DNA of 64,000 nt from Patescibacteria group bacterium UBA4787 (GTDB lineage Bacteria; Patescibacteriota; Patescibacteriia; UBA2591; UBA4787), in assembly GCA_002402995.1 (NCBI GenBank), contig DHGX01000001.1:85625-149624 (forward strand), read 5' to 3'. Shown here piece by piece: positions 35,976-60,143 of this stretch; within the stretch, counting starts at the first letter, position 1; each line of letters starts with the position of its first letter. Made by a program: the position numbers and the translations under genes. The notes beneath the pieces are model-generated. The model worked only from the letters and a program-made list of their open reading frames with translations, searched no databases and was not told the DNA's origin.

Positions 35976-35977
35976 GT

Positions 35978-38760: not shown

Positions 38761-38850
38761 CCAATTTAGATCATTAACATTCCTGTTGAATCTGTCGCAA
38801 AAAGCGACGGATTTTTAACAGGGTAAATAAAAACCAAAAGGAGAAAAACG

Positions 38851-39660
38851 ATGAGTAAAGTCATCGGCGCAGACGCGGCCAAATTGGCTGGTTTGCAGAT
38901 CGACACGCTCCAGAAAGCGCGTGACGGCCAGATCACCCTCGAACACTGGGAATGGTTTAATAAGTTAACGAAAACAGAGCGCGATCGGCTTTGCAGAGAC
39001 GGCCATGTCGATACCAGAAGTCAGGCCAGACAAACTATCGAAGCCGTAAATAAAGTGGTATCATCTGCCCAAGAAAGATGGGCCGCTTTTGATGACCTCT
39101 TCGATCGCCAGATTCAAACCCTGCGCGACCGGGGCTGTCCCAGCCAGGTATTGGCCATGCTCATCAGTCAGAAACCCCAGGTGCTGGCCAAAGCTTCGAC
39201 CATGACCTTCAAGGAAGGTCGCATCCCGTTCCTGTCAATCATCCCGTTCTCTGCACTCAATCTCTCGACCCAGATGTCCATGGTCAGAAATGGAAACCAG
39301 TCCGGCATCAGCTGTCTCGACACCAACGAGATCAAGGACATCGTCTCCACGCCTGTCCAGCCCTATTTCATCTTTGACGTGGAAGACGGCGAAGGCATGT
39401 TGGGCCGGTCCGTTCTGAAAGCCACTGAACTCATCAAGAGCCAGAACCGTTCCCCCTTAACCGCTGCCGAGGTCATCAGTCTCGGCATCCAGGCCAAGGC
39501 GCTGTCCAAGCGCTACGTGGACGCCGCTGGCTCCCGCTACAGGAACGACGACCGCGCCCCGTTTCTGTGCCTCGACGTCAGTCGGCCGGGACTCGGCTGG
39601 AACGGCGTCGACAGCTCGTTCAGCGAGTGTGGCTCGGCATCGTGCGGTAGTCGGTCCTAG
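38851..39660 (+). CDS. Hypothetical protein (GC-rich, probably horizontally acquired)
   Basis: 269-aa ORF with clearly higher GC than flanking genes, a good SD and its own terminator; no recognised domain. Confidence 0.5.
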   Translation: MSKVIGADAAKLAGLQIDTLQKARDGQITLEHWEWFNKLTKTERDRLCRDGHVDTRSQARQTIEAVNKVVSSAQERWAAFDDLFDRQIQTLRDRGCPSQVLAMLISQKPQVLAKASTMTFKEGRIPFLSIIPFSALNLSTQMSMVRNGNQSGISCLDTNEIKDIVSTPVQPYFIFDVEDGEGMLGRSVLKATELIKSQNRSPLTAAEVISLGIQAKALSKRYVDAAGSRYRNDDRAPFLCLDVSRPGLGWNGVDSSFSECGSASCGSRS

Positions 39661-39717
39661 GGTTTTGGAGCCTTGGGCCTTTCGGTCTTCTTGGTCTTTG
39701 GTTTTTTGGAAATTCAG

Positions 39718-39757
39718 AAAGCCCCAACACAAAAAAGTGTTGGGGCTTCTTTTTTTG
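39718..39757 (+). terminator. Rho-independent terminator
   Basis: gccccaacacaaaaaagtgttggggc followed by TTCTTTTTTT. Confidence 0.75.
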
Positions 39758-39793
39758 GCTTCGCCCCGCAGAGAAAATGAATATTTTCAGATA

Positions 39794-39860
39794 AGCCAAT
39801 CGACTGATTGGCTGATTCATTTTCTTCGGGGTTGACAAAAATATTTTATTTTGTTATTAT
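39794..39860 (+). promoter_or_regulatory. Palindromic operator-like site plus promoter
   Basis: AGCCAATCGACTGATTGGCT (39794-39813), a perfect 8-3-8 palindrome, lies 18 bp upstream of TTGACA (39832-39837), a 17-nt spacer and TATTAT. Confidence 0.5.
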
Positions 39861-39950
39861 TTTATTATCAAGCGAGTGAGAGAAGAACAAATCTGTTTGT
39901 TCTTCCGAGCGAGCACGGATAACACAGGGTTAATACCCTTTATTTGCCTT
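39861..39950 (-). repeat. Intergenic repeat family 1 copy (reverse orientation)
   Basis: TTATTATCAAGCGAGTGAG ... AACACAGGGTTAATACCC. Confidence 0.6.
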
Positions 39951-39999
39951 TTTGTTCTTTGCAAAAACTAAAGCCATAAACCCAAAACAGGAGAAAGAG

Positions 40000-40422
40000 A
40001 TGGTGTTTAAAAGCTATCAACAAATCTTGAAAGCCAAAAGTTTTATTCAAAAAATGCGGCTTGAAACAAGATCCGCCTGTTTGCAATATCGCCGCGTTAT
40101 GAAAAAGAAGGCGATTAATGTCTTGTCCTCGCTCAACAACCTAGAGCGCGATTTAATAGCCCGTAGCCAGCACCTGATTCATCAGGAACAGAAATCTCTC
40201 GAACGCATTATCGGACAAACGACAAAAGACAGCGAGGCGCTCAAGAGTAAAAATTGTCCTGATTTCGCGGCTATAGAAAATCGACTGATTAGTCAGGTCG
40301 GTGAATTAACAGTTAAGACCAAGGAACAGCTGTTGCCCATCCAGCGACAAATCGAGGAAATCGAAAGCCTTAAAAGGCAAATCGGGTTTTTAACCGGATT
40401 GAAAAGAATGCGACGCGCTTAA
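40000..40422 (+). CDS. Hypothetical coiled-coil protein
   Basis: Start at MVFKSY with SD ACAGGAGAAAGAG; helical heptad-rich; no domain recognised. Confidence 0.35.
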   Translation: MVFKSYQQILKAKSFIQKMRLETRSACLQYRRVMKKKAINVLSSLNNLERDLIARSQHLIHQEQKSLERIIGQTTKDSEALKSKNCPDFAAIENRLISQVGELTVKTKEQLLPIQRQIEEIESLKRQIGFLTGLKRMRRA

Positions 40423-40433
40423 TCAGCGCGTTT

Positions 40434-40632
40434 TATTATCAAGCGAGCGAGAGAAACGAGAAACGAAGTTTTTTATTTCCGACCACGCCCGACTTCGCCT
40501 TGAGTGATTTTTAAAAACAGTCTTTCTAAACTAATATTTGCGGGGGGGTTCGGTACTTCGCTATTACTGCGCGGAACGGCGAACTCAAGGCGGGCGGGGC
40601 GAGCGCAGATAACACAGGGTTAATATCCTTTA
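40434..40632 (-). repeat. Intergenic repeat family 1 copy (long variant, reverse orientation)
   Basis: TTATTATCAAGCGAGCGAG ... GGCGGGCGGGGCGAGCGCAGATAACACAGGGTTAATATCC. The GC-rich core matches the 36440-36480 copy in reverse complement. Confidence 0.6.
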
Positions 40633-40782
40633 TGCCGCGTCAGAATTTATATTTTGGCGCGGTTTTCATTTAAATTAAATCAGTCCTGGTTTGCGAGATT
40701 TATAATCTTGTTTTTATCATTTAAATCGGCTAAAATATAAGTCTAAGATGTTCAGCTTATCTAACAGTGTAAATATGAATTT

Positions 40783-41034
40783 ATGCAAGATTTTTTGGTT
40801 CAATATTACAACTGGATTATCTTTTTGGTCGGTGTTTGGGTTTTGCCCTGGAAGGGTATGGCTTTATGGAAAGCGGCTCACCGCAACGAAAAGATTTGGT
40901 TCATCATTCTTTTAATTGTTAATACGGTTGGTTTGCTGGAAATTTTTTACATCTTTGTTTGGATTAAATTTTTGGCCAAAGAAGAAAGCGCCTGGCAAAG
41001 ATTTTGGCATAAGGTTTTTCCTAAGAAGTCATAA
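40783..41034 (+). CDS. Small membrane protein (two TM helices)
   Basis: ORF with two hydrophobic helices. Confidence 0.3.
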   Translation: MQDFLVQYYNWIIFLVGVWVLPWKGMALWKAAHRNEKIWFIILLIVNTVGLLEIFYIFVWIKFLAKEESAWQRFWHKVFPKKS

Positions 41035-41047
41035 AGCGACGAGTATG

Positions 41048-41186
41048 CCAGGTAGTGAAAATTCGATAGTGCTTTTCGCTTCAGCTTACTATCTGGTTCT
41101 ATCATCAATAAAATATTGATTTTTACTACTAGTGCATTTATATTAATAACTGCACTTTTAAGAAACATCGAATTTCTACTACCTGG
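41048..41186 (+). mobile_element. 139-bp miniature inverted-repeat element, family C copy 1
   Basis: The TIRs ATGCCAGGTAGTGAAAATTCGATAG ... CATCGAATTTCTACTACCTGGTAT nearly match the second copy at 46587-46725 (same 139 bp length). The element ends 1 nt before the ATG at 41188. Confidence 0.65.
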
Positions 41187-41187
41187 T

Positions 41188-42333
41188 ATGAAAACTTCGC
41201 GCCCCAAAATTTATAGTTTTTTCACCTCGAAACTTACGATCAGTGTTTTTTTTATTATCGTCGTTGTCCTTAATATTTTGGTGGCAGTGTCTATCCGTTA
41301 TTCGATTAAAGCGCAAAAATCAAGCGAAGGAGAAAATGAATTTCTTAAACGAAAAATTAATTTCGATCAACCTTTTTATGTTAAAGGAATTTATCTGTCT
41401 TCCTGGACCGCCAGCGAACCTGTTTTGTTAAATAGGCTAATTGATTTAGCAAAAAAGAATAAACTTAACGCTGTAATTATTGATTTAAAAGACTCGCACG
41501 GAATAGTGGCTTATGAAAGTTCGGTGGAAACGGTAAAAAATTTAAAAACCAGCGAACCGCGTATAAAAAATCTAAAGAGCATATTAGAGAATCTGCATAA
41601 AGAAAATTTATATGCTATCGCGCGTTTGTCGGTTTTTCAGGATCCGACTTTAGCTTCCAGTAATCCTTCGGTGGCTTTGAAAAACAAAAATACAGGAAAG
41701 ATTTGGGCCGATAATAAAGGCTTGTTTTGGGTTGATCCGGCCTCTTTAGAGGTTTGGGATTATAATATAGCTCTGGCGAAAGAAGCTTGGCTGATGGGTT
41801 TTGATGAAATTAATTTTGATTACATTCGTTTTCCCTCAGACGGCAATATTTCCAATATTAGTTATCCTATTTGGGATGGCCTGGCGCCCAAAGAGGAGAT
41901 TATTCGGCGTTTTGCCGAGTACCAAAATATCGTTCTAAGTCCGCTTAACATCACGCGTTCCGCAGATTTGTTTGGTTTAACCTTTTGGCGGGATGACGAC
42001 TTGAACATCGGGCAAAATTTATCGTTATTAATTCCTTATTTCAATTATATTTGCCCTATGGTTTATCCTTCTCATTTTCCGCCCGGATTTGAGAATTTCA
42101 CTAATCCGGCCGAACATCCTTACGAGATTGTTTTCCGCAGTTTAGCCAAAGCTAAGGAAAAATTTATTGGCCAAAACGCTTTGCCGAGACCGTGGCTACA
42201 GGCTTTTGATTTGGGCGCGGAATATGACTCGGCTAAATTAGCTAAACAAATTAAGGCTGTGGAAGACGGCAACGGTTACGGTTGGCTATTATGGAACGCC
42301 CAAAATAAATACAATGATATTTTACCCTATTAA
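41188..42333 (+). CDS. TIM-barrel glycoside-hydrolase-like protein (GHL/DUF4015-type), membrane anchored
   Basis: Start moved to MKTSRPKIY immediately after the family-C element. N-terminal TM anchor, then GIYLSSWTA...NAVIIDLKD...AIARLSVFQD...GFDEINFDYIRFP segments typical of the putative glycoside hydrolase TIM-barrel family. Confidence 0.5.
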   Translation: MKTSRPKIYSFFTSKLTISVFFIIVVVLNILVAVSIRYSIKAQKSSEGENEFLKRKINFDQPFYVKGIYLSSWTASEPVLLNRLIDLAKKNKLNAVIIDLKDSHGIVAYESSVETVKNLKTSEPRIKNLKSILENLHKENLYAIARLSVFQDPTLASSNPSVALKNKNTGKIWADNKGLFWVDPASLEVWDYNIALAKEAWLMGFDEINFDYIRFPSDGNISNISYPIWDGLAPKEEIIRRFAEYQNIVLSPLNITRSADLFGLTFWRDDDLNIGQNLSLLIPYFNYICPMVYPSHFPPGFENFTNPAEHPYEIVFRSLAKAKEKFIGQNALPRPWLQAFDLGAEYDSAKLAKQIKAVEDGNGYGWLLWNAQNKYNDILPY

Positions 42334-42349
42334 TTTTTAAACTGAATTT

Positions 42350-42697
42350 ATGTCTCAGCGAAGACAAGAACAACTTAACGAATTGATTCAGCAAGAATTG
42401 TCACAAATTATTTTGCGCGAAGTAGAAATGCCCGAGGACTCTCTTTCAACCATTACCAACGTGGAAGTGGATAAAGATTATTTAACCGCCAAGGTGTTTT
42501 TGAGTGTCTTCCCCTTTAAGTATAGTCAACGCGTTTTAGGTAAACTGAGGAAAAAAGCAGGTTATTTGCAGTTTTTACTTAATAGAAAATTGGGCATGCG
42601 CTTGGTGCCAAAAATATTTTTTGAGCTGGATCAAACAGAAGAAAAAGCTTCAGAAATAGAAGACCTGCTTAATAAAATTTCACACTCGCCATCTTAA
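42350..42697 (+). CDS. rbfA: Ribosome-binding factor A
   Basis: RbfA pattern (R.E.L...I...L...V.DP...ITNVEV..D...AKVFLSV); 115 aa. Confidence 0.75.
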   Translation: MSQRRQEQLNELIQQELSQIILREVEMPEDSLSTITNVEVDKDYLTAKVFLSVFPFKYSQRVLGKLRKKAGYLQFLLNRKLGMRLVPKIFFELDQTEEKASEIEDLLNKISHSPS

Positions 42698-42864
42698 GCG
42701 GAATTTATTTGAATTTGAGGCATTTTCGGGGCTCGCAACTTAAGAATTGAATATTTATAGTTTTCCGCATGGTGTTTTCTGATAGTTTTGTTAGTATGTT
42801 ATAGTATCGACCAGTCAAAAAGTCGAAGCGAATAATAAATAAAATAACAAAATAATAAAAATTT

Positions 42865-44298
42865 ATGCGCCAAAAATGTAAAAAACACTCTAAAAAGGCC
42901 TTTGTTCAGATTCCGATAATCATGCTTGTTGCTTCTGTGGCTGCCTTGGGAGCTCTTCTCGTGGCTCCGGCGATAGTTAAAGTCGGGAATACGCGCTTAG
43001 CGCAAGTTGATTTGACTCAAGTCGTCGCTCCTGCTAATAATACGGAGTCTATCTCACAGGCTCAATCCATGCAGCCGGAAAAATCAATAATAATGAATCA
43101 AGGCCAGTCCGTCCAAATAGATCAGCCAATAATGCAACCAGGCACAGAACAGACTAATAGGCCGGAGATGAATTTACAAGAAATGAGGTCAGACTTTGAT
43201 CAAGAAAAACCAATTGATCCACAAGAAATTAAAAGCGTAACGCAACAATTGAAAGACATGCAGAAGGAGATTAAAAATCTTTTAACTCAACTTAAGAGTT
43301 TGCCGAAACTCGTTGATGAAGCAGCCCAGTTAAATGAAGCCCTTAGCCAGATTAATACTTTCGAACAGAACTTGAAAGATTCCTCAGTTGACACTTCTCA
43401 GAGAGAGGTGATACAGGAATTTTACGATGCTCGTTTCTGGGATACCATCCATGAGGTCAGGAACAGTTTCGTCAATCCGCGGGAAATAAAAAATGTTTTG
43501 AAACAAGCATCCGACTTGAAACAACAGATCAAAACACTTGCTATACAGGCAAAAAAATTGGCTAATTTGAGCGACGAGGTAAGTAAATTAAACGAACTTT
43601 CCGTTACGTTGGATAAATTTAAACAGGACATCAATAACCCGCCGGAGGATATGACACAGAGAGATGTTTTGCAAGAATTTTACGATGCCAGATATTGGGA
43701 CGATATTAATTCCATAAGAATGAAAATCGAATTCCCGAAACAGGTTAAACAGTTTGAGAAAGAATTATTAAGTGTGGAAAAATTATTAAAAAATAAGACG
43801 TATCAGAAAATCGCCATATTGGATATAGCGTCAATTACGAATACGGTTGCGGGTATGCGAACCACAATAAATGACGCAAAAGCTAAATTTAATAGCGGCG
43901 AAGTAGAAGACGCGATGCAATCCTTGCAGGACATTTACGGTGATTACGGTCCGGGCGACATAAATTGTGTGCTCAATTCTTTCCGTGACATTAATACCAA
44001 TTTACCAAAAGTCAAAGACGTTGAAATAAAGGCTTCGTTGCAAGATGTCATCGATCCTATAATTGAAGCAGTGAAAGACGAAGATTATCGCGGGGCTTGT
44101 CAGGGAGTAAATGAAATTAGAAATGAACTTTCTAAGATTATGCAATCAGCTTCCAGGGTTAAGTCTACGCTCGACACGAAAACTAGGCAGAAATTGGATA
44201 ACTTACAGCAATTAATAGATAAAAAGTTTGGCGGACAAGACAATAATGCGCCTCAAGATCAGATGAAATCACAAGAAATGAAACCGCAAGAGCAATAA
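42865..44298 (+). CDS. Secreted repetitive hypothetical protein
   Basis: Signal-peptide/TM N-terminus, a Q/N-rich region and an internal duplicated module QR(E/D)V(I/L)QEFYDAR(F/Y)WD.I. Confidence 0.45.
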   Translation: MRQKCKKHSKKAFVQIPIIMLVASVAALGALLVAPAIVKVGNTRLAQVDLTQVVAPANNTESISQAQSMQPEKSIIMNQGQSVQIDQPIMQPGTEQTNRPEMNLQEMRSDFDQEKPIDPQEIKSVTQQLKDMQKEIKNLLTQLKSLPKLVDEAAQLNEALSQINTFEQNLKDSSVDTSQREVIQEFYDARFWDTIHEVRNSFVNPREIKNVLKQASDLKQQIKTLAIQAKKLANLSDEVSKLNELSVTLDKFKQDINNPPEDMTQRDVLQEFYDARYWDDINSIRMKIEFPKQVKQFEKELLSVEKLLKNKTYQKIAILDIASITNTVAGMRTTINDAKAKFNSGEVEDAMQSLQDIYGDYGPGDINCVLNSFRDINTNLPKVKDVEIKASLQDVIDPIIEAVKDEDYRGACQGVNEIRNELSKIMQSASRVKSTLDTKTRQKLDNLQQLIDKKFGGQDNNAPQDQMKSQEMKPQEQ

Positions 44299-44392
44299 AG
44301 ATGATTAAAAGATATCAAATCCCGGGCACTAAAAATGTCCGGGATTTGTTTTTTGTTGACCTTTTCTCCTTATTTTGTAGAATAAAACAATT

Positions 44393-45778
44393 ATGTCTAA
44401 TGTTATTATTGATAAGCAAAAAATCGAAGAATTATTGACGCGCGGCGTGGAAAATATTTACCCGAACCGTGATTTCTTAGAAAAACTCTTGTATTCCAGA
44501 AAACGTTTAACTCTATATACGGGCTACGATCCAACAGCGCCAACCCTGCATATTGGCCATAGCATTACTATGCTAAAACTACGTCAATTTCAAGGATTGG
44601 GCCATAAAGTAATTATGCTTATTGGAGATTTTACCGGCATGATCGGCGATCCTACGGATAAAACCGCGACTCGCAAGCAGCTCACGCGCAAACAGGTATT
44701 GGAAAATTGTAAGGAATATAAAAAACAAGCGTCTGCAATTTTAGATTTTAAGGGCAAGAATCCGGTTGAATTGAAATATAACAGTAAATGGCTGGCGAAA
44801 ATGAATTTTGCCGAGGTTTTGGAGTTAGCTTCGCATTTTACGGTTCAGCGAATGTTAGAAAGAGATATGTTTGAAAAAAGAATGCTTATAACTTATGCGC
44901 GTTGTCGTAAATGTAATGATTTGTTTAAACCAAAAATTCAATTTAGCACGAAAGAAGCTTTTGATACAGCTCTTCCAATAATTATTTCTACTAATTGTCA
45001 AATTTGCGGAGAAAGAACGGTGGTCGAAAAAAAAGATTTAATTTTAGCGGAGTTGGAGTCGCCAGCCCCAATTTATCTCCATGAATTTTTATATCCTGTC
45101 ATGCAGGCCTACGATTCGGTAATAATGGATGTTGATGGTGAGGTCGGCGGCAACGACCAGACTTTTAATATGTTGGCCGGTCGGACATTAATGAAAGAAT
45201 TAAAAAACAAAGAAAAATTTGTTTTGACTACTAAACTTTTAACTGACACAAGCGGTAAAAAAATGGGCAAAAGCGAAGGCAATATGATTGCTTTGTCTGG
45301 CTCGCCTCAAGAGATGTTCGGTAAGGTAATGAGTTGGTCAGACGATTTGATTGTCAACGGTTTTATTCTATGTACCCGCTTGCCGGAGTCGGAAATTAAA
45401 AAATTAGAACAAGACTTAAAAAGCGGCGTCAATCCAAGAAATCTAAAAATTAAATTAGCCGGAGAAATTGTTAAAATTTACTACGGAGATAAAGCGGCCA
45501 ATTCGGCTGAAGAAAATTTCAATAAAATTTTCAGAGAGCATTTGATACCCGAAGATATAAAAACAGAAAAAATTAATCGAGGTAATCATAAGTTGATTGA
45601 TTTAATCTTTGATTATAGATTGGTTTCCAGCAAAGCAGAAGCGCGAAGATTAATTGAACAGGGAGGTGTGGAAATTAATCAAAATATCATTAAAGATTGG
45701 CAGGCGATTGTAAATATTGAATTACCTCAAATTATAAAGGCGGGGAAAAGAAGGTTTTTAAGACTTGACCCCAAATAA
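44393..45778 (+). CDS. tyrS: Tyrosyl-tRNA synthetase with C-terminal S4 domain and a Cys-containing insertion
   Basis: HIGH (PTLHIGH) and KMGKS motifs, a GYDPTA...GDFTGMIGDP TyrRS core, and a C-terminal S4 region (RRLIEQGGVEINQNII). Confidence 0.85.
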   Translation: MSNVIIDKQKIEELLTRGVENIYPNRDFLEKLLYSRKRLTLYTGYDPTAPTLHIGHSITMLKLRQFQGLGHKVIMLIGDFTGMIGDPTDKTATRKQLTRKQVLENCKEYKKQASAILDFKGKNPVELKYNSKWLAKMNFAEVLELASHFTVQRMLERDMFEKRMLITYARCRKCNDLFKPKIQFSTKEAFDTALPIIISTNCQICGERTVVEKKDLILAELESPAPIYLHEFLYPVMQAYDSVIMDVDGEVGGNDQTFNMLAGRTLMKELKNKEKFVLTTKLLTDTSGKKMGKSEGNMIALSGSPQEMFGKVMSWSDDLIVNGFILCTRLPESEIKKLEQDLKSGVNPRNLKIKLAGEIVKIYYGDKAANSAEENFNKIFREHLIPEDIKTEKINRGNHKLIDLIFDYRLVSSKAEARRLIEQGGVEINQNIIKDWQAIVNIELPQIIKAGKRRFLRLDPK

Positions 45779-45802
45779 ATTTTGTGTTAATATGTTGATA
45801 TT

Positions 45803-46512: not shown

Positions 46513-46586
46513 ACCTTGTTATTTATAATTAAAGGTTAGTAAAATCGCTCCATTGGAGCGATTTTACTTTCCGTTTTAAATATATG

Positions 46587-46725
46587 CCAGGTAGTGAAAA
46601 TTCGATAGTGCTTTTTGCTTCGGCTCATTACTTGGTTTCGTTGTTAACAAAATAACTAATCTTTGCTTCCAGCGCACTCCTTAATATAATCGCACTTCAA
46701 GAAGCATCGAATTTCTACTACCTGG
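46587..46725 (+). mobile_element. 139-bp miniature inverted-repeat element, family C copy 2
   Basis: Same TIRs as 41048-41186; ends 1 nt before the trmD ATG. Confidence 0.65.
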
Positions 46726-46726
46726 T

Positions 46727-47541: not shown

Positions 47542-47670
47542 AGTATTGTTAATTTATATAGCCAAGTTCTTTAAAAATTTATTTTTTAGTTCAAACCACT
47601 ACAAAAATTCTTAAATTTTTTGTAGTTGCAAATTTTGAGTTTTGTAAATTTTTAGTATCAAATTTTTGTT

Positions 47671-49193
<1,523 letters not shown>

Positions 49194-50273: not shown

Positions 50274-50363
50274 AAATAAATATGTATTTTGTTAATGGGC
50301 ATTTAGTCCACCAGCTGGTGGAGAACCCTAGTCCTCTTCCGCCTGCCCCGTTAAATTTCTGAA

Positions 50364-50434
50364 TGGGCGACCAAGGAATCGAACCCTGTTCTCTTCCGTG
50401 TAAAGGAAATGTTTTACCATTAAACTAGTCGCCC
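50364..50434 (-). tRNA. tRNA-Val (anticodon TAC)
   Basis: The reverse complement GGGCGACTAGTTTAATGGTAAAACATTTCCTTTACACGGAAGAGAACAGGGTTCGATTCCTTGGTCGCCCA. Confidence 0.85.
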
Positions 50435-50501
50435 AAGATTAATTTAACGGGGTGGATAAAGGAAGCTTAATCCCTTTATAATACCCATTATTTTTTTAAA
50501 G

Positions 50502-50595: not shown

Positions 50596-50670
50596 ATATT
50601 CGTCATGCTTCGTGAAATTGGTTCGCTACGGAATCAGACAAAAAGATTTTTGTCTGTCCCCCTGTTTGCC
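50596..50670 (-). repeat. Intergenic repeat family 2 copy
   Basis: The reverse complement ATAATTGGCAAACAGGGGGACAGACAAAAATCTTTTTGTCTGATTCCGTAGCGAACCAATTTCACGAAGCATGACGA matches copies at 55683 and 63536. Confidence 0.6.
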
Positions 50671-50703
50671 AATTATATAACTTTTGAGATAAAAATCAAG
50701 AGC

Positions 50704-51003: not shown

Positions 51004-51016
51004 AAGAGATAATATT

Positions 51017-53281: not shown

Positions 53282-53340
53282 TGATTAAGATTAGATGAAT
53301 TGATAAACGCATCTATTATACTATTTTAAAATAAAAATAA

Positions 53341-53366
53341 AAGAGGCTCTTTTTTGAGAGCCTCTA
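53341..53366. terminator. Hairpin terminator downstream of the 53393 gene
   Basis: agaggctcttttttgagagcctct. Confidence 0.5.
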
Positions 53367-53392
53367 AGGGTTTTTGGGTTGACTAGCAAAGC

Positions 53393-54052: not shown

Positions 54053-54100
54053 CTTATGACACCCCCTTTCTTTCTATTTTTATTTTAAAAGTGCGATTAA

Positions 54101-54826
54101 TTACTTTTTATTGAGATCTTTTTGAAATTTCACAAGAGCTTTCTTGGCTGCTTCGGTTTCGGCTTCTTGTTTATTGGTGCCTCTTCCCCGGGCGATAGGT
54201 TTGCCATCAACGACAGATATGGCTACAAATAATCTTTCGTGGGCTGGTCCGGTCTCGGAAACGATTTCATATCGGGGAGTCTTTTTTAGTTGAGCTTGTA
54301 CAATTTCTTGTAAAAGTGTTTTGGGGTCTTTGTCTTGGATAATTTTTACCGCCGATTTGGGAATACCAGTAATAATAAATTTGTTAACAAATTCTTTAGT
54401 CTTGATAAAACCTTGATCTAAGTAAATAGCGCCGATAAGAGCTTCTGTGGCATCGGCTAAAATTACTTTTTTAGCCTTGGGTTCTCCGATTAATTCGCCG
54501 CGGCCAAGGAATAGAAATTTTTCTAAATTTATTTTTTCAGCCGTATCTGATAGATTATTGGTATTAACAATAGCAGACCTTAAAAGTGTTAATTCGCCCT
54601 CCGGTTTGCGGAACATTTTAAATAGATATTCCGTAACAATCAATTCGAGGACTGCGTCGCCTAGAAATTCTAGTCTTTCGTTATGGTCCCACCTAACGAG
54701 TCGATTCTCATTTTTGAAAGATCGATGAGTAAGCGCTTCTCTGAGCAAATTGAAATGTCTGAATTTAATATTAATAAACTTTTCTAGTTTCTCAAGATTT
54801 TGATTGTTCGTTTTTATTTTCTGCAT
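54101..54826 (-). CDS. rnc: Ribonuclease III
   Basis: [20 protein letters not shown] RNase III signature and a C-terminal dsRBD (GPAHERLF...[10 protein letters not shown]). Confidence 0.9.
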
Positions 54827-55259
54827 CTTCTTTGCCTTTTATTTTTTCATAAATAGCTCCTAGCACGCCATTAACGAATTTACCGGAACTAATGCCACTG
54901 AACGCTTTGGCCACTTCAATAGCTTCATTTATGGCTACTTTAGGCGGCGTATTTTTAGACACGGCCAATTCATAAACGCCAATACGTAAAATATTGCGAT
55001 CAATCGAGGTGATTTGTTCAAGCGGCCATTGGGGCGCATATTCTTTAATATAGTTATCTATTTTGTCTAGATTGTCGATTATGCCAAAGACTAATTCTTC
55101 ACTGAATTTATTATCTCCATCCAGCATGCCGAATTCTTCAGAGTTTCTTTTAACAATTTCTATTAGTTCATTTTTGTCTAATTCTTTTTCCGCGCGCGAA
55201 AAATCCCATTCATAAAGGGTTTGCAGGGCGATAGTTCTACTCAAATGACGCGAGGCCAT
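54792..55259 (-). CDS. nusB: Transcription antitermination factor NusB
   Basis: [21 protein letters not shown] and [10 protein letters not shown]. Confidence 0.8.
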
Positions 55260-55281
55260 ATGATTTTTATTAAAAATCTAA

Positions 55282-55494
55282 TTATTTGCTCTTTTTATCT
55301 TTTTTGTCTTTTTTTGTTTTCTCGAGATTAACAACGATTTTTCCTTTATAGTTTCCGCAATGAATGCAGGCTTTATGCGGTAGGGTTTGTTTTTTGCACT
55401 GCGGACAAGTGGTAAGATTAATTTTTTTGAGTCTATATTGATATTCTCTCCTTTTTTGGCGACTTCTTGATCTTTTTTGAGTTGGTAGAGCCAT
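55282..55494 (-). CDS. rpmF: 50S ribosomal protein L32 with Lys-rich C-terminal extension
   Basis: MALPTQKRSRSRQKRR and the CPQCKK...CIHCGNYKGK zinc ribbon of L32. Confidence 0.8.
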   Translation of the reverse strand: MALPTQKRSRSRQKRREYQYRLKKINLTTCPQCKKQTLPHKACIHCGNYKGKIVVNLEKTKKDKKDKKSK

Positions 55495-55559
55495 AAGATT
55501 AATCTACATTTAAATTTATTAATTATTAAAGCTATAAATAAATATATCATTTTTTATAA

Positions 55560-55890
55560 TTTTTGGCAAGTTGATACCGAGAAGATTTTTAAAATTTAAT
55601 ATTTCGGCGCTATCCACACTTTATCCCCATTTTATCCTCGAAACTCCAAAAAATTTCGTTTCAATTATAAACGATCGATGTTATAATTGGCGAACGGAGG
55701 AACAGACAATTTTTTGTCTAATTCTGTAGCGAGCCAATTTCACAGAGCGAAGCAAGTATAATTGGCAGCAGGGATAAAACAAAAATTTTCCGCCAGCTGG
55801 CGGATTGATTTTATCCGAAGCGCTCAAATTTCAGAAGCGAGGCGACTATATTTTTTTTGTTGATCAAGCTAATAAAAATAAAATAAATTT
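55560..55890. promoter_or_regulatory. Candidate chromosomal origin (oriC) region upstream of dnaA
   Basis: Consecutive DnaA-box-like 9-mers cTATCCACA (55611), TTATCCCCA (55621) and TTATCCTCG (55632), and TTATCCGAA (55810). The flank is AT-rich and dnaA is immediately downstream. The region also contains repeat family 2 copies (55683-55760, and a degenerate one at 55757-55850). Confidence 0.5.
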
Positions 55891-57252
55891 ATGGAGATAA
55901 ATCGGGAACAATTGTGGCAGGCTGTTATGGCAGAATTAGAGTTAATTATTCCCCGAGTAAATTTTTTAACATGGTTCCAGAGCACGCATTTATTGACGGC
56001 TAATTGTGAGAGCGGCGAAGCGGTGGTCGGTGTGCCGAACAATTTTACCAAAGAATGGTTAGAGAAAAAATACCATAAATCTATACTTAATATTTTACAA
56101 AATTTAACTGACAACAAGGTTAAAATAATAATTTATCAAGTAGAGGGAACGCCAATCACTATTTCCAAAACTATCCCCAAGGTTGATTTAGCGCGCCTGG
56201 AAAAAATGATGCCGACAGAAGAGCCGAACATTTCTGAGCTTAATCCACGTTATACTTTCGAAATGTTTGTCGTGGGTAAAGGGAACGAGTTGGCTTATGC
56301 TGCCGCGCAAGCAGCCGCCGAAGCTCCCGGGGAAAAATATAACCCACTTTTTATCTACGGTGGTGTTGGTTTGGGTAAAACTCATCTTTTGCAAGCAATC
56401 GGCGGCGCCGTTTTAAAAAGAAATGGCCGTCTAAAAGTTATGTATACAAATGCCGAGAAATTTACCAATGAATTCGTCAGGGCTATTCGCGACGGCAACG
56501 TGGAAAAGTTTAAAAGAATTTATCGCAACCTGGACGTATTTTTAATCGACGATATACAATTTATCGCCGGCAAAGAAAGCACACAAGAAGAATTTTTCCA
56601 TACCTTTAATGCTTTGCATCAAAAAGACAAACAGATTGTAATAACATCCGATCGCTTGCCCAAAATTATTCCGGCTCTAGAAGAAAGGTTAATGTCCCGT
56701 TTTGAATGGGGCTTGATCGCCGATGTTTCTTCGCCAGACTTAGAAACCAGAATGGCTATTTTGAATAGCAAATGTAAAGAAAGGAATTATGAATTAAGCC
56801 AGGAAATTATCCAATATCTTGCCAGTCATATCCAGAAGAATGTGCGCGAATTAGAGGGCGCTTTAAGTAAAATTATGGCTTATCATGAGATGAATAGAAC
56901 GATTCCGACTATAGATTCAGTGAAACAAATAATGTCTAGTTTAGCCGCACAACCCAAGAAGTCTTTGATTAATTCAAAGCAGCTTATTAACGCAGTGGCA
57001 GAATTTTATGGGATCAAGCTTCCCGACTTGGTCGGCGATTCTCGAAAAAAAGAATTGGTTGGTCCGCGTCAAGTAGCTATGTTTTTATTGCGTGAAGAGT
57101 TAAACGTTTCGTTCCCATTCATCGGCCAAGAATTGGGTAATCGCGATCATACTACGGCTATGCACGCTCACGATAAAATCAAAAAAGAATTGGAGGGTGA
57201 TGGCCGCGTTAAACAAGAGATTGATTATATTAAACAAAGGCTTTATAATTAA
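55891..57252 (+). CDS. dnaA: Chromosomal replication initiator DnaA
   Basis: Walker A GGVGLGKTHLL, box VII, and the C-terminal DNA-binding helix (GNRDHTTAMHAHDKI). Confidence 0.9.
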   Translation: MEINREQLWQAVMAELELIIPRVNFLTWFQSTHLLTANCESGEAVVGVPNNFTKEWLEKKYHKSILNILQNLTDNKVKIIIYQVEGTPITISKTIPKVDLARLEKMMPTEEPNISELNPRYTFEMFVVGKGNELAYAAAQAAAEAPGEKYNPLFIYGGVGLGKTHLLQAIGGAVLKRNGRLKVMYTNAEKFTNEFVRAIRDGNVEKFKRIYRNLDVFLIDDIQFIAGKESTQEEFFHTFNALHQKDKQIVITSDRLPKIIPALEERLMSRFEWGLIADVSSPDLETRMAILNSKCKERNYELSQEIIQYLASHIQKNVRELEGALSKIMAYHEMNRTIPTIDSVKQIMSSLAAQPKKSLINSKQLINAVAEFYGIKLPDLVGDSRKKELVGPRQVAMFLLREELNVSFPFIGQELGNRDHTTAMHAHDKIKKELEGDGRVKQEIDYIKQRLYN

Positions 57253-57293
57253 TATTGTCGTCAATTTCTGATTTTTAGTTTTGAGCCAATTGT

Positions 57294-58130
57294 ATGTATA
57301 TTATTAAGGCCGATGGAAAACGTGAACGTTTTAATGCGAGAAAAATTCTGCGCACTTGTTTGCGTGCCGGCGCTGATCGAATATCGGCCAACGAGGTAAC
57401 GAATCGCATTAACCAAGAGGTGCGTGAAGGAATGACCACGCGCGAGATTTTACAACGCACGCTTTCTTATTTGAACGCAATTAATCCTGCGGTGGCTGCT
57501 AAATATTCTTTAAAAGATTCTATGTTCAAATTGGGTCCGGCTGGTTTCCAGTTCGAACAATTTTTATTAAGGATTTTTCAGGAATACGGATACCGAACAA
57601 AACATTCTCAAATTATTCAAGGCGCTTGCGTTAAACACGAAATAGATATTGTATTATTCTCAAAAAATATTTATTCAACAGTGGAATGCAAATATCATAA
57701 CTCTCCCGGCGTTTATACCGGCATTAAAGATGTACTTTATGTTTGGGCCAGATTTTTAGACCTGCGCGACGGTTACAAGAAAGGACTGTGCGCTAATTTT
57801 AAAGAAGCGTGGCTGGCTTCTAATACCAAGTTTTCCGACTGGACGATTCAATATGCTGAGTGTAAAAAAATGAAGCTTTTGGGTTGGAATTGGCCGGTCG
57901 AAGGAGGCCTGGAGAAATTAATTGAAAACAAAAAACTTTATCCAATCACAATTATCCCTAATTTGGAACCCGATCTTCGGGCAAGGTTCGTTAAAGCAAA
58001 TATTATATTGTGTCGTGACTTGGTTTCTTATGATTCAACTCGCCTATTATCTGTGGCCAAAGTTAAAGCCAGTCGTCTAAAAGATATAATTTCGTTGGCC
58101 GATCAGATATTGAATCATTCTAATTATTAA
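57294..58130 (+). CDS. ATP-cone domain protein with C-terminal PD-(D/E)xK nuclease-like domain
   Basis: N-terminal IIKADGKRERFNARKILRTCLRAG is ATP-cone-like; the C-terminal HEIDIVLF...VECKYH looks like a restriction-endonuclease-like core. Confidence 0.45.
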   Translation: MYIIKADGKRERFNARKILRTCLRAGADRISANEVTNRINQEVREGMTTREILQRTLSYLNAINPAVAAKYSLKDSMFKLGPAGFQFEQFLLRIFQEYGYRTKHSQIIQGACVKHEIDIVLFSKNIYSTVECKYHNSPGVYTGIKDVLYVWARFLDLRDGYKKGLCANFKEAWLASNTKFSDWTIQYAECKKMKLLGWNWPVEGGLEKLIENKKLYPITIIPNLEPDLRARFVKANIILCRDLVSYDSTRLLSVAKVKASRLKDIISLADQILNHSNY

Positions 58131-58146
58131 AAATTTGAATAAATTT

Positions 58147-58222
58147 ATTTGTGAGCAAGCGAGGGAAAAGCAAATGAATTTGCTTTTCCGAGCGAGCGAA
58201 ACAAACACAGGGTTAATAGTTT
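58147..58222 (-). repeat. Intergenic repeat family 1 copy (reverse orientation) with perfect internal palindrome
   Basis: GAGCAAGCGAGGGAAAAGCAAATGAATTTGCTTTTCCGAGCGAGCGAAACAAACACAGGGTTAATAG. Confidence 0.6.
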
Positions 58223-58298
58223 GACGTTTGCATAAGTTGACGCATAGAGCACGCTCTGTGCGGGCATCAAGCTTGCCCCGTGGTAAACACCTTTATAT

Positions 58299-59981
58299 AT
58301 GGATAATTCAACAAGCAAAATTAAATTAACCGAGGAAGAGGGAGCGGCAAAATTACAGGAAAAATTAAAAACAATTAGTAGTAAGGGCGAAGAAGAGGAA
58401 GTAGAAGAAAAAGCCCGTTTTGCCGGTTTAAGTTATGTCAACTTGGTTCGTTTTCCGATTGCGCCGGAAGCCCTATCTCTATTGACCCCAGAAGACGCTT
58501 TAAAATATCACGCCATTTGTTTTTATGCCGGCGAGCGAGACGCCAAGATTGGTTTTGTAAAAGCCGAAGACCAGACTGTCAAAGAAGTTAAAGAAATGAT
58601 TGAATCCATTTACCGCCTTAAATTAGAAGTTTTTTTAATTTCTCAGACAAGTTTCGATTACGGATATAAATTATACGCTTCTTTGCCCAAGGTTAGTAAA
58701 TTTGCTACAGGCGTGGAAATCACCGAAGAGAATTTGAAAAAATACCAAGTTGCCATCAAAACTTTCCGCGACTTGGACCAAAAAATTAAAGAAGTTTCTA
58801 TTTCCGACATTATTATTTTAATAATGGCTGCTTCTTTGCAATCTAGAAGCTCGGATATCCATATTGAGGCTGAAGAAGCAGACATTAAAATTAGATTTCG
58901 CGTAGACGGTGTTTTAATTGACGTAGCTTCTTTGCCGAAATCTTTTTGGAAACAAGTAGTCACTAGAATCAAATTGCTTTCCGGATTGAAAATCAATATT
59001 ATTGATAAACCGCAAGATGGCCGTTTTACGATTCATTTGTCTAACGAGAGTATTGATGTTCGTGTTTCTTGTTTGCCGACTGCTTTCGGGGAAAGCGTGG
59101 TGATGAGAATCTTGCGTTCGTCTTCAACCGGGCTTTCTTTTGACAATTTAGGTCTTCGCGGTACGGTTTACGAAAAATTGAAACAAGAAGTAGAGCGACC
59201 AAACGGCATGGTTATTACTACTGGCCCCACAGGTTCAGGTAAAACTACAACGCTATACGCGATTTTGAATAAAATTAATGATCCGGAGACAAAAATTATC
59301 ACACTAGAAGATCCCGTGGAATATCAACTGAAGGGTATTAATCAAAGTCAGGTTGATCCCAGTCGCAATTATACTTTCGCCGCGGGCTTAAGATCTATTT
59401 TGCGCCAAGATCCGGACGTAGTAATGGTTGGAGAAATTCGCGACCTAGAAACAGCAGAGATTGCTATCCAGGCGGCTCTAACTGGCCACTTAGTAATTTC
59501 GACTTTACATACTAATGATGCGGCTGGCGCTCTTCCGCGTTTTTTGTCTATGGGGGTCAAGCCATATCTATTAGCGCCGGCGATTAACGCGATTATTGGT
59601 CAGCGTTTGGTGCGGCGTATTTGCGAACACTGCAAAGAAGAAATGATTTTGTCGCCAGAAGTTTTAGAAAAAGCTAAAAAAACACTTTCAGACATTCCTT
59701 TTGTGTCCGGCGTGAAAGTTGATTTAAACACTCTTAAATTTTATCATGGTTTGGGTTGCGACGAATGCCAGGGTTTGGGTTATAAAGGACGTATAGGCAT
59801 TTATGAAGTTTTTAATATGAACGCGGAAATCGAAAAAGTGATTGTTGGCGGAGAAGTAAGCGAGTATTTAATACGCGATTTAGCTAAAAAACAGGGTATG
59901 TTGACTATGGCGCAAGACGGTATTCTAAAAGCCATAGAAGGTATCACCACCGTAGAAGAAGTTTTCCGTGTTACCGAGTAA
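58299..59981 (+). CDS. pilB: Type IV pilus / type II secretion ATPase (PilB/GspE)
   Basis: Walker A GPTGSGKTT, the Asp box, His box LVISTLHTND, and a C-terminal tetra-Cys CEHC...CDEC. Confidence 0.85.
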   Translation: MDNSTSKIKLTEEEGAAKLQEKLKTISSKGEEEEVEEKARFAGLSYVNLVRFPIAPEALSLLTPEDALKYHAICFYAGERDAKIGFVKAEDQTVKEVKEMIESIYRLKLEVFLISQTSFDYGYKLYASLPKVSKFATGVEITEENLKKYQVAIKTFRDLDQKIKEVSISDIIILIMAASLQSRSSDIHIEAEEADIKIRFRVDGVLIDVASLPKSFWKQVVTRIKLLSGLKINIIDKPQDGRFTIHLSNESIDVRVSCLPTAFGESVVMRILRSSSTGLSFDNLGLRGTVYEKLKQEVERPNGMVITTGPTGSGKTTTLYAILNKINDPETKIITLEDPVEYQLKGINQSQVDPSRNYTFAAGLRSILRQDPDVVMVGEIRDLETAEIAIQAALTGHLVISTLHTNDAAGALPRFLSMGVKPYLLAPAINAIIGQRLVRRICEHCKEEMILSPEVLEKAKKTLSDIPFVSGVKVDLNTLKFYHGLGCDECQGLGYKGRIGIYEVFNMNAEIEKVIVGGEVSEYLIRDLAKKQGMLTMAQDGILKAIEGITTVEEVFRVTE

Positions 59982-60050
59982 CGCACTTGACTCTTCAATA
60001 AGAAATAGGATAGAATTATCTTATTGATAAATAGCACTTTTAAAAATTCA

Positions 60051-60108
60051 CCCCGTTAAATCCTATAGAGTAGGAATTCCGACTAAAGTCGCAATTATTT
60101 AACAAGGG
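60051..60108 (+). promoter_or_regulatory. Leader hairpin CCCCGTTAAAT...ATTTAACAAGGG followed by GTAAATAAAAA and SD AAGGAGG
   Basis: Same architecture and 3' sequence (TTAACA(A)GGGTAAATAAAAA) as the leader at 38782-38835. Confidence 0.5.
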
Positions 60109-60143
60109 TAAATAAAAATTCTCAAAAAAAGGAGGATTCTAAA

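Follow-up and report, generated by a model that had tools for sequence, protein, structure and literature searches.

The described sequences closest to the elements reported here are MITEs, the REP and REPIN sequences associated with RAYT proteins (Y1 HUH), the palindromes derived from IS200/IS605, and the attC sites of integrons. MITEs (e.g. the Correia elements of Neisseria) are non-coding, 30-250 nt long, and carry terminal inverted repeats and short duplications, as do the elements reported here, in which the duplication is 4 bp of the form TNNA. The defining mark of REP and REPIN sequences is a conserved tag, GTAG or CGTC, that stays unpaired at one end of the palindrome (PMC3733652).

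The window analysed is a 64,000 nt stretch of the genome of Patescibacteria group bacterium UBA4787 (contig DHGX01000001.1). A first-pass annotation had described three related sequences in it, the leaders of a DUF5701 gene and of a clpP-like gene and a module nested in a larger "family-B" element, and had read them as what looked like a portable leader or insertion module associated with foreign genes. All three are present as claimed, and the hairpins at 38782-38823, 60051-60108 and 31418-31527 fold much more stably than shuffled sequences, with z values of -6.0, -3.6 and -5.5, respectively. We put at about three in four the probability that the hairpins are members of a superfamily of mobile DNA elements that are small, palindromic and non-coding and have the ends 5'-CCCCGT…ACGGGG-3'. 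Family membership, mobility, the polarity of insertion and conservation or absence in relatives are directly supported.

Two classes of arm were distinguished, namely class I, ending …GTTAAAT or …GTTAGAT, and class II, ending …GTTAGAG or …GTTAGAA. Class I arm pairs (CCCCGTTAAAT…ATTTAACGGGG) were found in at least 119 contigs from more than 10 phyla when GTDB genomes were scanned with the pattern CCCCGTTAAATN{31-91}ATTTAACRRGG, against about 20 contigs expected by our own estimate. Among the matches listed, the phyla include Patescibacteria, WOR-3, Desulfobacterota, Omnitrophota, Bacteroidota, Calditrichota, Gemmatimonadota, Elusimicrobiota, Cloacimonadota and Planctomycetota. Pairs of the GTTAGAG type (CCCCGTTAGAG…CTCTAACGGGG) were found by a pattern scan in at least 120 metagenome contigs. 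The terminal inverted repeats are 11-15 nt long and are perfect in 245 elements recovered in a scan for inverted 11-mers beginning CCCCGT, and the two arms lie 7 to about 130 nt apart. Arms of 11-15 nt that stay identical from phylum to phylum are not usual in MITEs, which counts against the reading as mobile elements. A single MAG can contain identical copies at different loci; tandem and nested copies are common, and copies abutted with a 4-nt spacer, in the form ATTTAACGGGG-TGAA-CCCCGTTAAAT, are frequent. A T-shaped fold consisting of a stem and two hairpins was found in 40 of 75 short class I copies, where 7.8 would be expected with shuffled cargo.

Among the matches listed, the copies lie between tandem genes in 76 cases, divergent genes in 12 and convergent genes in 6, and the interior is found in both orientations relative to transcription. 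The neighbours are housekeeping genes, with no enrichment of any gene or protein family near the copies listed. No Rfam covariance model matched at its gathering score in the window or in 19 further loci, and relaxing the E value to 1 for 11 loci returned only the enclosed tRNAs and chance miRNA and T-box matches well below gathering scores. No paper describing a CCCCGT…ACGGGG palindrome family was found.

The two classes differ in the sequences that flank them. Identical 4-nt direct flanks are present in 70 of 135 GTTAGAG copies and 11 of 13 GTTAGAA copies among the matches listed, and direct flanks of 3, 5 and 6 nt were found 5, 3 and 0 times. In its terminal inverted repeats and its target-site duplication of 4 bp (consensus TNNA), class II behaves like a classical MITE. 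Class I copies are without a target-site duplication (direct flanks in only 9 of 87) and have instead a pyrimidine-rich 5' flank (YYYR; TTTA, TTCA, CCTG and CTTG were seen) and a purine-rich 3' flank (YRRR; TGAA, TAAA, CAAG and CAGG). Although they lie outside the scan pattern, TTYA/TRAA flanks are conserved among the class I matches listed. Class I junctions for which the ancestral sequence is known contain 4-8 extra nt; with no duplication either, class I is not accounted for by a simple cut-and-paste mechanism of the DDE type.

Between the window and the relatives L126, L129, L130, L131 and L258, orthologous sites differ in the presence or absence of elements. The portable module defined by its arms was borne out by empty sites in relatives and target-site duplications as well as by hundreds of copies elsewhere, where the first-pass annotation had named a lack of further instances as the result that would count against it. 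One element in L129 is absent from the orthologous site in the window, and its duplication, CTTG, lies within a -35 box. The elements in the window with duplications defined by such comparisons are listed below.

31340-31588, + strand: "family-B" element B1, CCCCGTAATAC…GATATACGGGG, upstream of a class II aminoacyl-tRNA synthetase gene; duplication TTTG
31418-31527, + strand: class II MITE-like element, CCCCGTTAGAGATT…AATCTCTAACGGGG, nested in B1; duplication TAAA at 31414-31417 and 31528-31531
35835-35976, + strand: "family-B" element B2, between a dksA-like gene and lspA; duplication TATG

The empty sites in L126 read GGCATTTG/CCAAAATC for B1 and ATCATTATG/TCAATTATT for B2, the slash marking the insertion point, and the B2 duplication regenerates the ATG of lspA. 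B2 lacks the element nested in B1 at 31418, while L129 and L132 have copies with a homologous interior at other sites. Both "family-B" elements and the module nested in B1 are therefore insertions, and the "family-B" elements behave in the same way as class II. The nested module is a class II copy; TAAAC lies directly 3' of it.

The leader of the clpP-like gene contains the following features.

59987-60016, + strand: promoter of the clpP-like gene, sigma-70-like (TTGACT-18-TAGAAT), located 5' of the element and conserved in L129 and L131
60051-60108, + strand: class I palindromic element in the 5' UTR, recognized by sequence and fold and absent in L129, L130 and L131
60109-60143, + strand: ancestral A-rich leader (TAAATAAAAA…) with an AGGAGG SD, outside the element as seen from the empty site in L129 and L130

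The element has the stem CCCCGTTAAAT/ATTTAACAAGGG and two hairpins, CCTA-TAGAG-TAGG and AATTCCGAC-TAAA-GTCGCAATT, and is followed by TAAATAAAAA, AGGAGG and the ATG at 60144; an extra TTCA (60047-60050) lies directly 5' of it. The orthologous leaders in L129, L130 and L131 read GCACTTTTAAAAA/TAAATAAAAATT across the empty site, and L131 has an unrelated GC hairpin at this position. The clpP-like leader hairpin is a lineage-specific insertion; three related genomes share the promoter, the A-rich leader and the SD but do not have the hairpin. As TAAATAAAAA is present at the empty site of relatives, only the GGG of the 13-mer shared by the two leaders belongs to the hairpin. TAAATAAAAA is a common A-rich leader word in this DNA (9 copies in the window, 2.6 expected). 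The class I copy inserted between the promoter and the SD, and in that position would be transcribed with the gene as a 5'-UTR stem-loop. We would guess that, so close to the 5' end, a stable stem-loop either protects the mRNA or is neutral, and any effect on stability or translation is one that we infer.

A tRNA-Val gene in the window is enclosed by an exact repeat of the arm motif seen in the clpP hairpin, where shuffles predict 0 occurrences. This copy and a degenerate one were absent from the first-pass annotation.

50346-50452, - strand: class I arms CCCCGTTAAATT and AATTTAACGGGG around a complete tRNA-Val(TAC) gene at 50363-50435
50457-50477, - strand: 5' part of the ancestral tRNA-Val in decayed form, AAAGGGATTAAGCTTCCTTTA, from alignment with L258; ends within the anticodon loop, with TCCA after it
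50296-50341, - strand: decayed 3' remnant of the ancestral tRNA-Val, CGGAAGAGGACTAGGGTTC…CTAAATGCCCA, from the same alignment
27045-27076, + strand: degenerate class I copy, CGTTAAAT…TCGCAATTATTTAACGGGG, with a weak fold and TAAAC at 27077-27081

The tRNA-Val genes of L258, L259 and L260 have no arms, and in the 3' remnant in the window a 16-nt palindrome takes the place of the T-loop. Probably, a class I cassette carrying tRNA-Val inserted into the resident tRNA-Val gene, at its anticodon loop, and took its place. Complete tRNA genes flanked by the arms are also found elsewhere within what is left of the cognate gene; among the loci examined, 11 tRNAs are enclosed by arms that extend the acceptor helix. 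The degenerate copy overlaps the stop codon of a SpoIID-domain gene. The window contains only five or six copies in total, several of them degenerate, and the arm words CCYYGTTA and TAACRRGGKWAAA occur 14 and 9 times, respectively (5.3 and 2.1 expected).

The hairpin upstream of the DUF5701 gene has a different history.

38732-38760, + strand: promoter of the DUF5701 gene, sigma-70-like (TTGACA-17-TACAAT), kept in each of the five leaders
38782-38823, + strand: conserved 5'-UTR hairpin of the DUF5701 gene, recognized by its fold and retained with the promoter in L126, L127, L128 and L132

Its arms are CCTGTTGAATCTGTCGC/GCGACGGATTTTTAACAGG, followed by TAAATAAAAA, AGGAG and the ATG at 38851, and at its base, CCTGTTGAAT/TTTTTAACAGG, the hairpin is similar to the arms of the family. 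It is conserved in the five genomes in at least three genomic contexts. One-sided, G-U compatible changes affect 7 of the 18 pairs of the stem, with no compensatory double change in any of the 18 across the five genomes. The hairpin is absent from more distant DUF5701 genes. It is an older leader stem-loop inherited with its gene and promoter, and may be an exapted copy of the palindrome family; its place in the family depends on a match to common arm variants with one or two mismatches, and the orthologues are less family-like. GGGTAAATAAAAA occurs exactly twice in the window, and orthologous DUF5701 leaders have CAGGACAAATAAAAA in its place and lack GGGTAAAT.

The idea of one leader shared by the two genes was therefore not sustained, the DUF5701 hairpin being gene-specific and the clpP-like hairpin missing from orthologous leaders. 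Nor is there a link to foreign genes, as had been suggested; relatives have both genes in synteny, all with an equally high GC content, and the genes are hence not recent acquisitions. The reservation that the similarity might reduce to the A-rich stretch next to the SD proved half right, in that this half is generic leader sequence, but the arm motif is a real family.

It is unlikely that both hairpins are instead a dedicated cis-regulatory RNA leader (riboswitch, thermosensor or protein-binding operator) selected for regulation. Both are very stable and lie between promoter and SD, and the DUF5701 hairpin has been kept across contexts with substitutions that preserve pairing, as G-U, on the sense strand only. 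However, none of the three orthologous clpP-like leaders has the hairpin, one having an unrelated hairpin, and the arms occur between unrelated genes of many phyla in either orientation to transcription. The lack of an Rfam match, of the hairpin in distant DUF5701 genes and of compensatory double changes also argues against regulation, which may still apply to the DUF5701 leader alone. That the duplex CCCCGUUAAAU/AUUUAACGGGG is a site for a host double-strand RNase (e.g. RNase III), releasing tRNAs and trimming mRNA leaders, is doubtful to a greater degree. Arms that extend the acceptor helix of enclosed tRNAs and stems of 11-15 bp, within the RNase III size range, would suit such a site, and a universal host enzyme would account for conservation across phyla. 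RNase III is not known to have a specific sequence requirement, and the orthologous tRNA-Val genes of three relatives do without arms. Spread at the DNA level is shown by the target-site duplications, by the empty sites and by copies lying in tandem or nested, and interiors in both orientations to transcription also count against processing.

That the arms are half-sites of a site-specific recombinase, of the Xer type or an invertase, is improbable. The frequent copies abutted with 4-nt spacers speak for it, as does GTTAAAT, the outer part of the XerD arm of Escherichia coli dif; universal Xer proteins would also explain both cross-phylum conservation and the absence of a dedicated gene. Identity with a Xer/dif site (11-bp arms, a 6-8 bp centre and inner ATAA/TTAT) was rejected, as the inner four bases are CCCC/GGGG rather than TTAT, the cargo varies from 7 to about 130 nt, and there is no partner arm in the flanking target DNA. 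Class II moreover has classical 4-bp duplications, and the one tyrosine recombinase gene found nearby, in L132, is merely flanked by two separate elements. Least credible, at a very low probability, is a chance likeness of two A-rich leaders that each have a hairpin. TAAATAAAAA is common in the window and ancestral at the clpP site, and GGGTAAAT is missing from DUF5701 orthologues, so that chance holds for the A-rich tail; for the arms it is refuted by the exact motif around tRNA-Val and in hundreds of contigs elsewhere. An intrinsic terminator was also considered and rejected, as neither leader has a GC-rich hairpin followed by a T run, the sequence 3' of the hairpins is A-rich, and the convergent-gene context is the rarest elsewhere.

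Under the preferred reading, the palindromic elements would transpose in trans and scatter through intergenic DNA. No autonomous element with the same ends and a transposase was found in 254 loci (1.7 Mb), where long-range matching arm pairs proved to be juxtaposed short elements. A tblastn search of the window and locus slices with an approximate, unverified IS200 TnpA query gave no hit with E <0.4. For class II, a DDE transposase would be our guess; ends beginning CC… with a 4-bp duplication are presumably those of an IS1380/piggyBac-like transposase.

Like MITEs, the elements are intergenic, multi-copy, nested and tandem; the hairpin would be co-transcribed when the insertion lies between promoter and gene, and landing in a promoter can rebuild the -35 box (L129 and L132). 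Unlike in MITEs, no parent insertion sequence with matching ends was found in the loci, identical ends of 11-15 nt recur in more than 10 phyla, class I has no duplication, and the interior is often a covarying hairpin pair or a whole tRNA gene. With REP/REPIN and IS200/IS605-derived palindromes they share dispersal as extragenic palindromes, mostly between same-strand genes, hairpin folding that is apparently under selection and, in class I, the lack of a duplication. The junction at 60047-60108 also fits insertion 3' of a tetranucleotide of an element with its own 3' tetranucleotide. However, there is no GTAG/CGTC tag, the flanks are YYYR/YRRR, and no RAYT or TnpA was detected in the window and loci. 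REPs are species-specific whereas these arms are cross-phylum, and the true duplications of class II are not made by Y1 transposition. Integron attC sites, known from similar uncultivated phyla, are likewise imperfect palindromes with GTTRRRY/RYYYAAC-like words (here GTTAAAT/ATTTAAC) and a variable, sometimes branched centre. Identity with attC was rejected; the word order is swapped, 5'-GTTAAAT…ATTTAAC-3' on both strands where attC needs 5'-RYYYAAC (R'') … GTTRRRY (R')-3', cassette arrays are absent, and no integrase lies nearby.

The tRNA-Val cassette resembles integrative elements that restore tRNA genes, in that insertion is into a tRNA gene (anticodon loop or D-loop) and tRNA function is kept. 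Mobile tRNA introns of Thermoproteales are a looser parallel, as are group I introns in Patescibacteria tRNA genes (PMC13011429); Rfam found no group I intron fold at the tRNA-Val site. In contrast to these elements and introns, there is no 3'-end duplication or splicing and no integrase here, and the insert is a palindrome-flanked unit of about 100 nt that carries a complete second tRNA of the same identity.

The three sequences recorded in the first-pass annotation, namely the leader hairpins of the DUF5701 and clpP-like genes and the module nested in the 'family-B' element B1, were found at their positions, and the observation is real. Searching the window for the arm words recovered two copies beyond these three. 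The elements are as follows, with z values comparing each fold with shuffles.

27045-27076: degenerate arm copy (arm-word search)
31340-31588, + strand: element B1
31418-31527: module nested in B1, a structured interior within a 17-bp stem, z = -5.5
35835-35976, + strand: 'family-B' element B2
38782-38823: long hairpin in the leader of the DUF5701 gene (ATG at 38851), dG -24 kcal/mol, z = -6.0
50346-50452: arms CCCCGTTAAATT…AATTTAACGGGG around a tRNA-Val (arm-word search)
60051-60108: stem bearing two small hairpins in the leader of the clpP-like gene (ATG at 60144), z = -3.6

The sequence GGGTAAATAAAAA is present at two places only in the window, and promoter-like sites lie upstream of both leader hairpins. 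The only Rfam matches in the window are one 16S rRNA gene and five tRNAs. The 16S rRNA gene (47666-49193) has no neighbouring 23S gene and is flanked by long complementary stretches that lack the CCCCGT motif. Other intergenic repeats are also present. One family, ATCAAGCGAGYGAGAGAA…TTCCGAGCGAGC…GATAACACAGGGTTAATACCCTTTAT, is found at 22477-22518, 39860-39943, 40440-40633 and 58160-58218, and its reverse complement adjoins a CCCCGTTAGAAG element in L127, a relative at the DUF5701 gene. A conserved 72-nt repeat has copies at 41044-41115 and 46583-46654 (82 % identity to each other), and a conserved promoter-proximal motif, TATAATTGGCGAACGGAGGAACAGACAA, is located at 55674-55715, 63528-63569 and about 50650-50690.

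Members of the family have the ends CCCCGT…ACGGGG, and arms ending in GTTAAAT or GTTAGAT (class I) or in GTTAGAG or GTTAGAA (class II). A scan of metagenomes with the GTTAGAG version, the one carried by the nested module 31418, matched at least 120 contigs. Among the matches listed, 70 of 135 GTTAGAG copies and 11 of 13 GTTAGAA copies have identical 4-nt direct flanks, with TAAA, TCAA, TTTA, TGAA and TTGA being frequent, and essentially no class II copies have direct-flank matches of 3, 5 or 6 nt. The class II target-site duplication is 4 bp, with the consensus TNNA. Related genomes supply empty sites for elements.

Filled and empty sites. L126, L129 and L130 are relatives at the DUF5701 or clpP-like gene; the inserted element is in parentheses and a slash marks the empty site.
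B1: filled in the window, …ATTTG(CCCCGTAATAC…ATACGGGG)TTTGCCAAAATC; empty in L126, GGCATTTG/CCAAAATC; duplication TTTG
B2: filled in the window, ATCATTATG(…)TATGTCAATT; empty in L126, ATCATTATG/TCAATTATT; duplication TATG
Nested module 31418: filled in B1; empty in B2; duplication TAAA
Homologue of module 31418: filled in L129 and L130, CGCACTTG(…)CTTGACC; empty in the window, CGCACTTGACT; duplication CTTG

The B2 insertion rebuilds the start of lspA. The homologue of module 31418 (3557-3675 in L129; also L130) is located within the clpP -35 box, and a class II copy at 2768-2877 in a further relative, L132, is in the -35 box of the DUF5701 gene of L132, with the duplication TTGA. In these class II insertions into the TTGA or CTTG of -35 boxes (L129, L132), the box is rebuilt via the target-site duplication. 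A class II remnant, consisting of a 3' arm only, is present at 7102-7114 in L131, a relative at the clpP-like gene.

Class I was sought with the pattern CCCCGTTAAAT, 31-91 nt, ATTTAACRRGG, using one genome per GTDB species, and at least 119 contigs matched compared to approximately 20 by chance (our own estimate). The matches listed were from Patescibacteria, WOR-3/Stahlbacteria, Desulfobacterota, Omnitrophota, Bacteroidota, Calditrichota, Gemmatimonadota, Elusimicrobiota, Cloacimonadota, Brocadiaceae and Bdellovibrionota, and included contigs labelled Gammaproteobacteria, one actinobacterial MAG and one Mucilaginibacter isolate. Four bases beyond the searched pattern are conserved (TTTA, TTCA, CCTG or CTTG at the 5' side; TGAA, TAAA, CAAG or CAGG at the 3' side) and, as these bases were absent from the search pattern, chance is ruled out. 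Many loci contain multiple copies, with a maximum of five in 8 kb, and WOR-3 UBA3073 and Omnitrophota AUK068 are examples of copy-rich MAGs. Identical interiors are found at separate loci within one MAG, and nested copies and tandem copies with a 4-nt separation are both common. Among the matches listed, copies are intergenic, between tandem (76), divergent (12) or convergent (6) gene pairs, and no neighbouring gene family is enriched, the most frequent being present at no more than 6 of 119 loci. Viral carriage was limited to two matches in IMG/VR.

The short copies share a structure. A stem with two adjacent hairpins (T-shape) is predicted for 40 of the 75 distinct short copies among the matches listed, versus 7.8 expected with shuffled cargo, and the 60051 copy has this fold. 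The sequences of the two inner hairpins are free to vary among copies while pairing is kept, and their order relative to transcription can be either way. No Rfam family was found for the element at gathering score (window and 19 loci) or at E up to 1 (11 loci); matches at the latter setting were the enclosed tRNAs and chance miRNA or T-box matches, which were far below gathering score. In the literature searched, the 11-mers occur in no relevant context, and MITEs in Patescibacteria, TNNA duplications and CPR palindromes likewise yielded nothing relevant. The terms palindrome, inverted repeat, MITE and pseudogene are all missing from a paper on tRNA introns in Patescibacteria (PMC13011429). 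A palindrome whose ends recur in more than 10 phyla and which is absent from Rfam and the searched papers points to a widespread mobilizing activity, whether that of a transposase or of a host enzyme that has been hijacked.

In class I, direct flanks are rare among the matches listed (9 of 87) and flanks of the form YYYR…YRRR are found in 55 of 87. The 5' and 3' flanks vary independently of each other, and usually one end is of the TTTA type and the other of the TTCA type. In a test of class I copies for target-site duplications (offsets 0-5, lengths 2-8), direct repeats stood out solely in copies from WOR-3 (loci L023, L026, L034, L085, L086 and L100), where they are 6-7 nt long and at offset 4 outside the arms; these repeats arise from the short CGCAGAT/ATCTGCG-like word arrays in which the copies are embedded. 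The insert at the clpP site is the element plus TTCA, with TTCA on one side only, and the tRNA junctions include 4-8 additional nucleotides. In an IS200/IS605-like scheme, insertion would occur 3' of a tetranucleotide and the element would bring its own 3' tetranucleotide. This scheme fits one class I junction and does not fit others, and tblastn of the window and loci for a Y1 transposase, using an approximate IS200 TnpA query, gave no hit with E below 0.4. Long-range arm pairs in 254 loci (1.7 Mb) revealed no autonomous copies. A recombinase gene in L132 was rejected as element cargo, as it is simply between two separate elements. Quasi-palindrome correction as the source of the inverted flanks was also rejected, perfectly complementary flank pairs being rarer than mixed ones. 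Integron attC sites, where the words fit GTTRRRY/RYYYAAC, were set aside as the arm order is inverted. Xer/dif was set aside too, as the sole common word is GTTAAAT, which we take to be the outer part of the XerD arm of E. coli dif, and there is neither a partner arm nor a fixed spacing.

The leader hairpins of the DUF5701 and clpP-like genes are different objects. The sole close homologues of the clpP-like gene, in three relatives (L129, L130 and L131), are intact (282 and 291 aa), and the gene order T2SSE, clpP-like, LeuRS is common to all three. Their leaders retain the promoter, …GCACTTTTAAAAA, TAAATAAAAATT… and the SD site and lack 60047-60108, though L131 has an unrelated GC hairpin at the equivalent position. 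On this comparison, the clpP-like hairpin is a recent insertion and TAAATAAAAA, found 9 times in the window versus 2.6 expected, belongs to the ancestral leader. The clpP-like gene in the window (60144-61008) has a +1 frame change around 60600-60640, in a Pro/Ala-rich linker. The frameshifted sequence is identical in three independent assemblies and is therefore not an assembly error; it represents either a pseudogene or recoding.

The DUF5701 gene is syntenic in L126 (71 % identity). L126, L127/L128 and L132 have all kept the promoter, the hairpin and the SD site; the gene context differs in L127/L128 and is another again in L132. The 5' arm of the hairpin is nearly invariant. The consensus structure has seven pairs with a one-sided change into or out of G-U, no compensatory change and two broken cells. 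Only the sense strand can form the G-U pairs, which favours a role for the hairpin as RNA. The orthologues carry CAGGACAAATAAAAA, and the 13-mer common to this leader and the clpP-like leader is thus restricted to this genome. The hairpin is absent from DUF5701 genes at 44-50 % identity. Its base in L126, CCCTGTTGAAT, has one mismatch to the common family variant CCCTGTTAAAT, which makes derivation from an old family copy plausible. More distant DUF5701 genes (L133-L137) adjoin bAvd, and L137 also includes a reverse transcriptase fragment; the target of a diversity-generating retroelement (DGR) has such a neighbourhood. The 3' end of the window gene (38851-39660) is its most GC-rich stretch (0.68), and no Avd or RT was recognized near this gene.

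All relatives have a high GC content in the DUF5701 and clpP-like genes (0.49-0.58 and about 0.49-0.50, respectively, versus 0.39-0.41 for the genomes). The first-pass annotation had considered them probably acquired, which is contradicted by their synteny in relatives and by the equal GC-richness there. GC-richness is a stable trait of both genes rather than a mark of recent transfer. 'Portable insertion module' was a correct description of the arms, and 'shared leader of foreign genes' was not.

Arm-enclosed tRNAs account for 11 of the 96 tRNAs in the examined loci, which were chosen via the arms. For 8 of the 11 it is possible to interpret the flanks as the two halves of a host tRNA gene, and host and cargo have the same amino-acid identity in six cases. 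In three relatives at the tRNA-Val locus (L258, L259 and L260), tRNA-Ala, tRNA-Val(TAC) and tRNA-Phe are consecutive and lack arms; a neighbouring gene in L258 is 92 % identical. In the window, the upstream Val spacer is retained, followed by a 5' remnant, …GCTTCCTTTA, that stops within the anticodon loop, then TCCA, the arms enclosing a different tRNA-Val(TAC), CAGG, a 3' remnant, CGGAAGAGGACTAGGGTTC…CTAAATGCCCA, and the conserved pre-Phe spacer. A perfect 16-nt palindrome, TCCACCAGCTGGTGGA, at 50307-50322 (minus strand) is in place of the T-loop in the decayed tRNA-Val remnant.

Arm-enclosed tRNAs interpreted as insertions in tRNA genes (cargo in host).
Window: Val-TAC in Val-TAC; host halves decayed, relatives intact
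L083: Val in Val; in-silico removal of the cassette restores a cloverleaf
L005: Ala in Ala; in-silico removal of the cassette restores a cloverleaf, the host being tRNA-Ala(TGC) after removal of the element and TAAA
L028 and L056: Thr-TGT in Thr-TGT; the cargo tRNA can be aligned with the flanks to either side of the anticodon loop
L243: Thr-CGT in Thr-CGT; flank alignment as in L028 and L056, plus a clean TAAA duplication
L182 and L188: D-loop insertions; cassette inside a host tRNA

The host tRNA of the Ala cassette in L188 (about 3818-3890) bears two adjacent small hairpins, TGTCCCTACGGGACA and TCTCCCGAAGGGAGA, in an extended anticodon stem. In the tRNA-Gly region of the window (21330-21400 and 21472-21560, minus strand), complementary CCTCCG…CGGAGG sequences are on both sides of the tRNA and downstream lies a fragment, CAGGGGTTCAACTCCCCTTGCTTGCCA, that resembles a T-arm and a CCA-bearing acceptor stem; an in-silico excision scan of this tRNA-Gly restored no host tRNA.

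The proposed cassette would be a unit of approximately 100 nt, made up of a complete tRNA gene and palindromic arms, that displaces a resident tRNA gene of matching identity by entering its anticodon loop or D-loop. In small genomes with single-copy tRNA genes, only cognate insertions would survive, and we infer that they do so only if the element supplies a working copy. We assign a probability of about 0.45 to the joint reading that an arm-defined mobile cassette replaces the cognate tRNA and that the elements form a superfamily, so far undescribed, of T-shaped hairpin transposons in many phyla. If true, this would mean horizontal turnover of essential tRNA genes; the tRNA-carrying copies suggest a horizontal replacement route for essential single-copy tRNA genes in reduced genomes that can be checked with existing metagenomes. 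For annotation, leader hairpins with such ends in Patescibacteria and other uncultivated bacteria are best read as mobile insertions rather than gene-specific regulators, and the elements also mark recent rearrangements, e.g. where a -35 box or a start codon has been rebuilt.

Among known elements, MITEs (e.g. the Correia elements) and REP/REPIN elements come closest. Unlike these, elements of the type found in the window have ends that are conserved across phyla, a T-shaped interior, insertion signatures of two classes and tRNA cargo.
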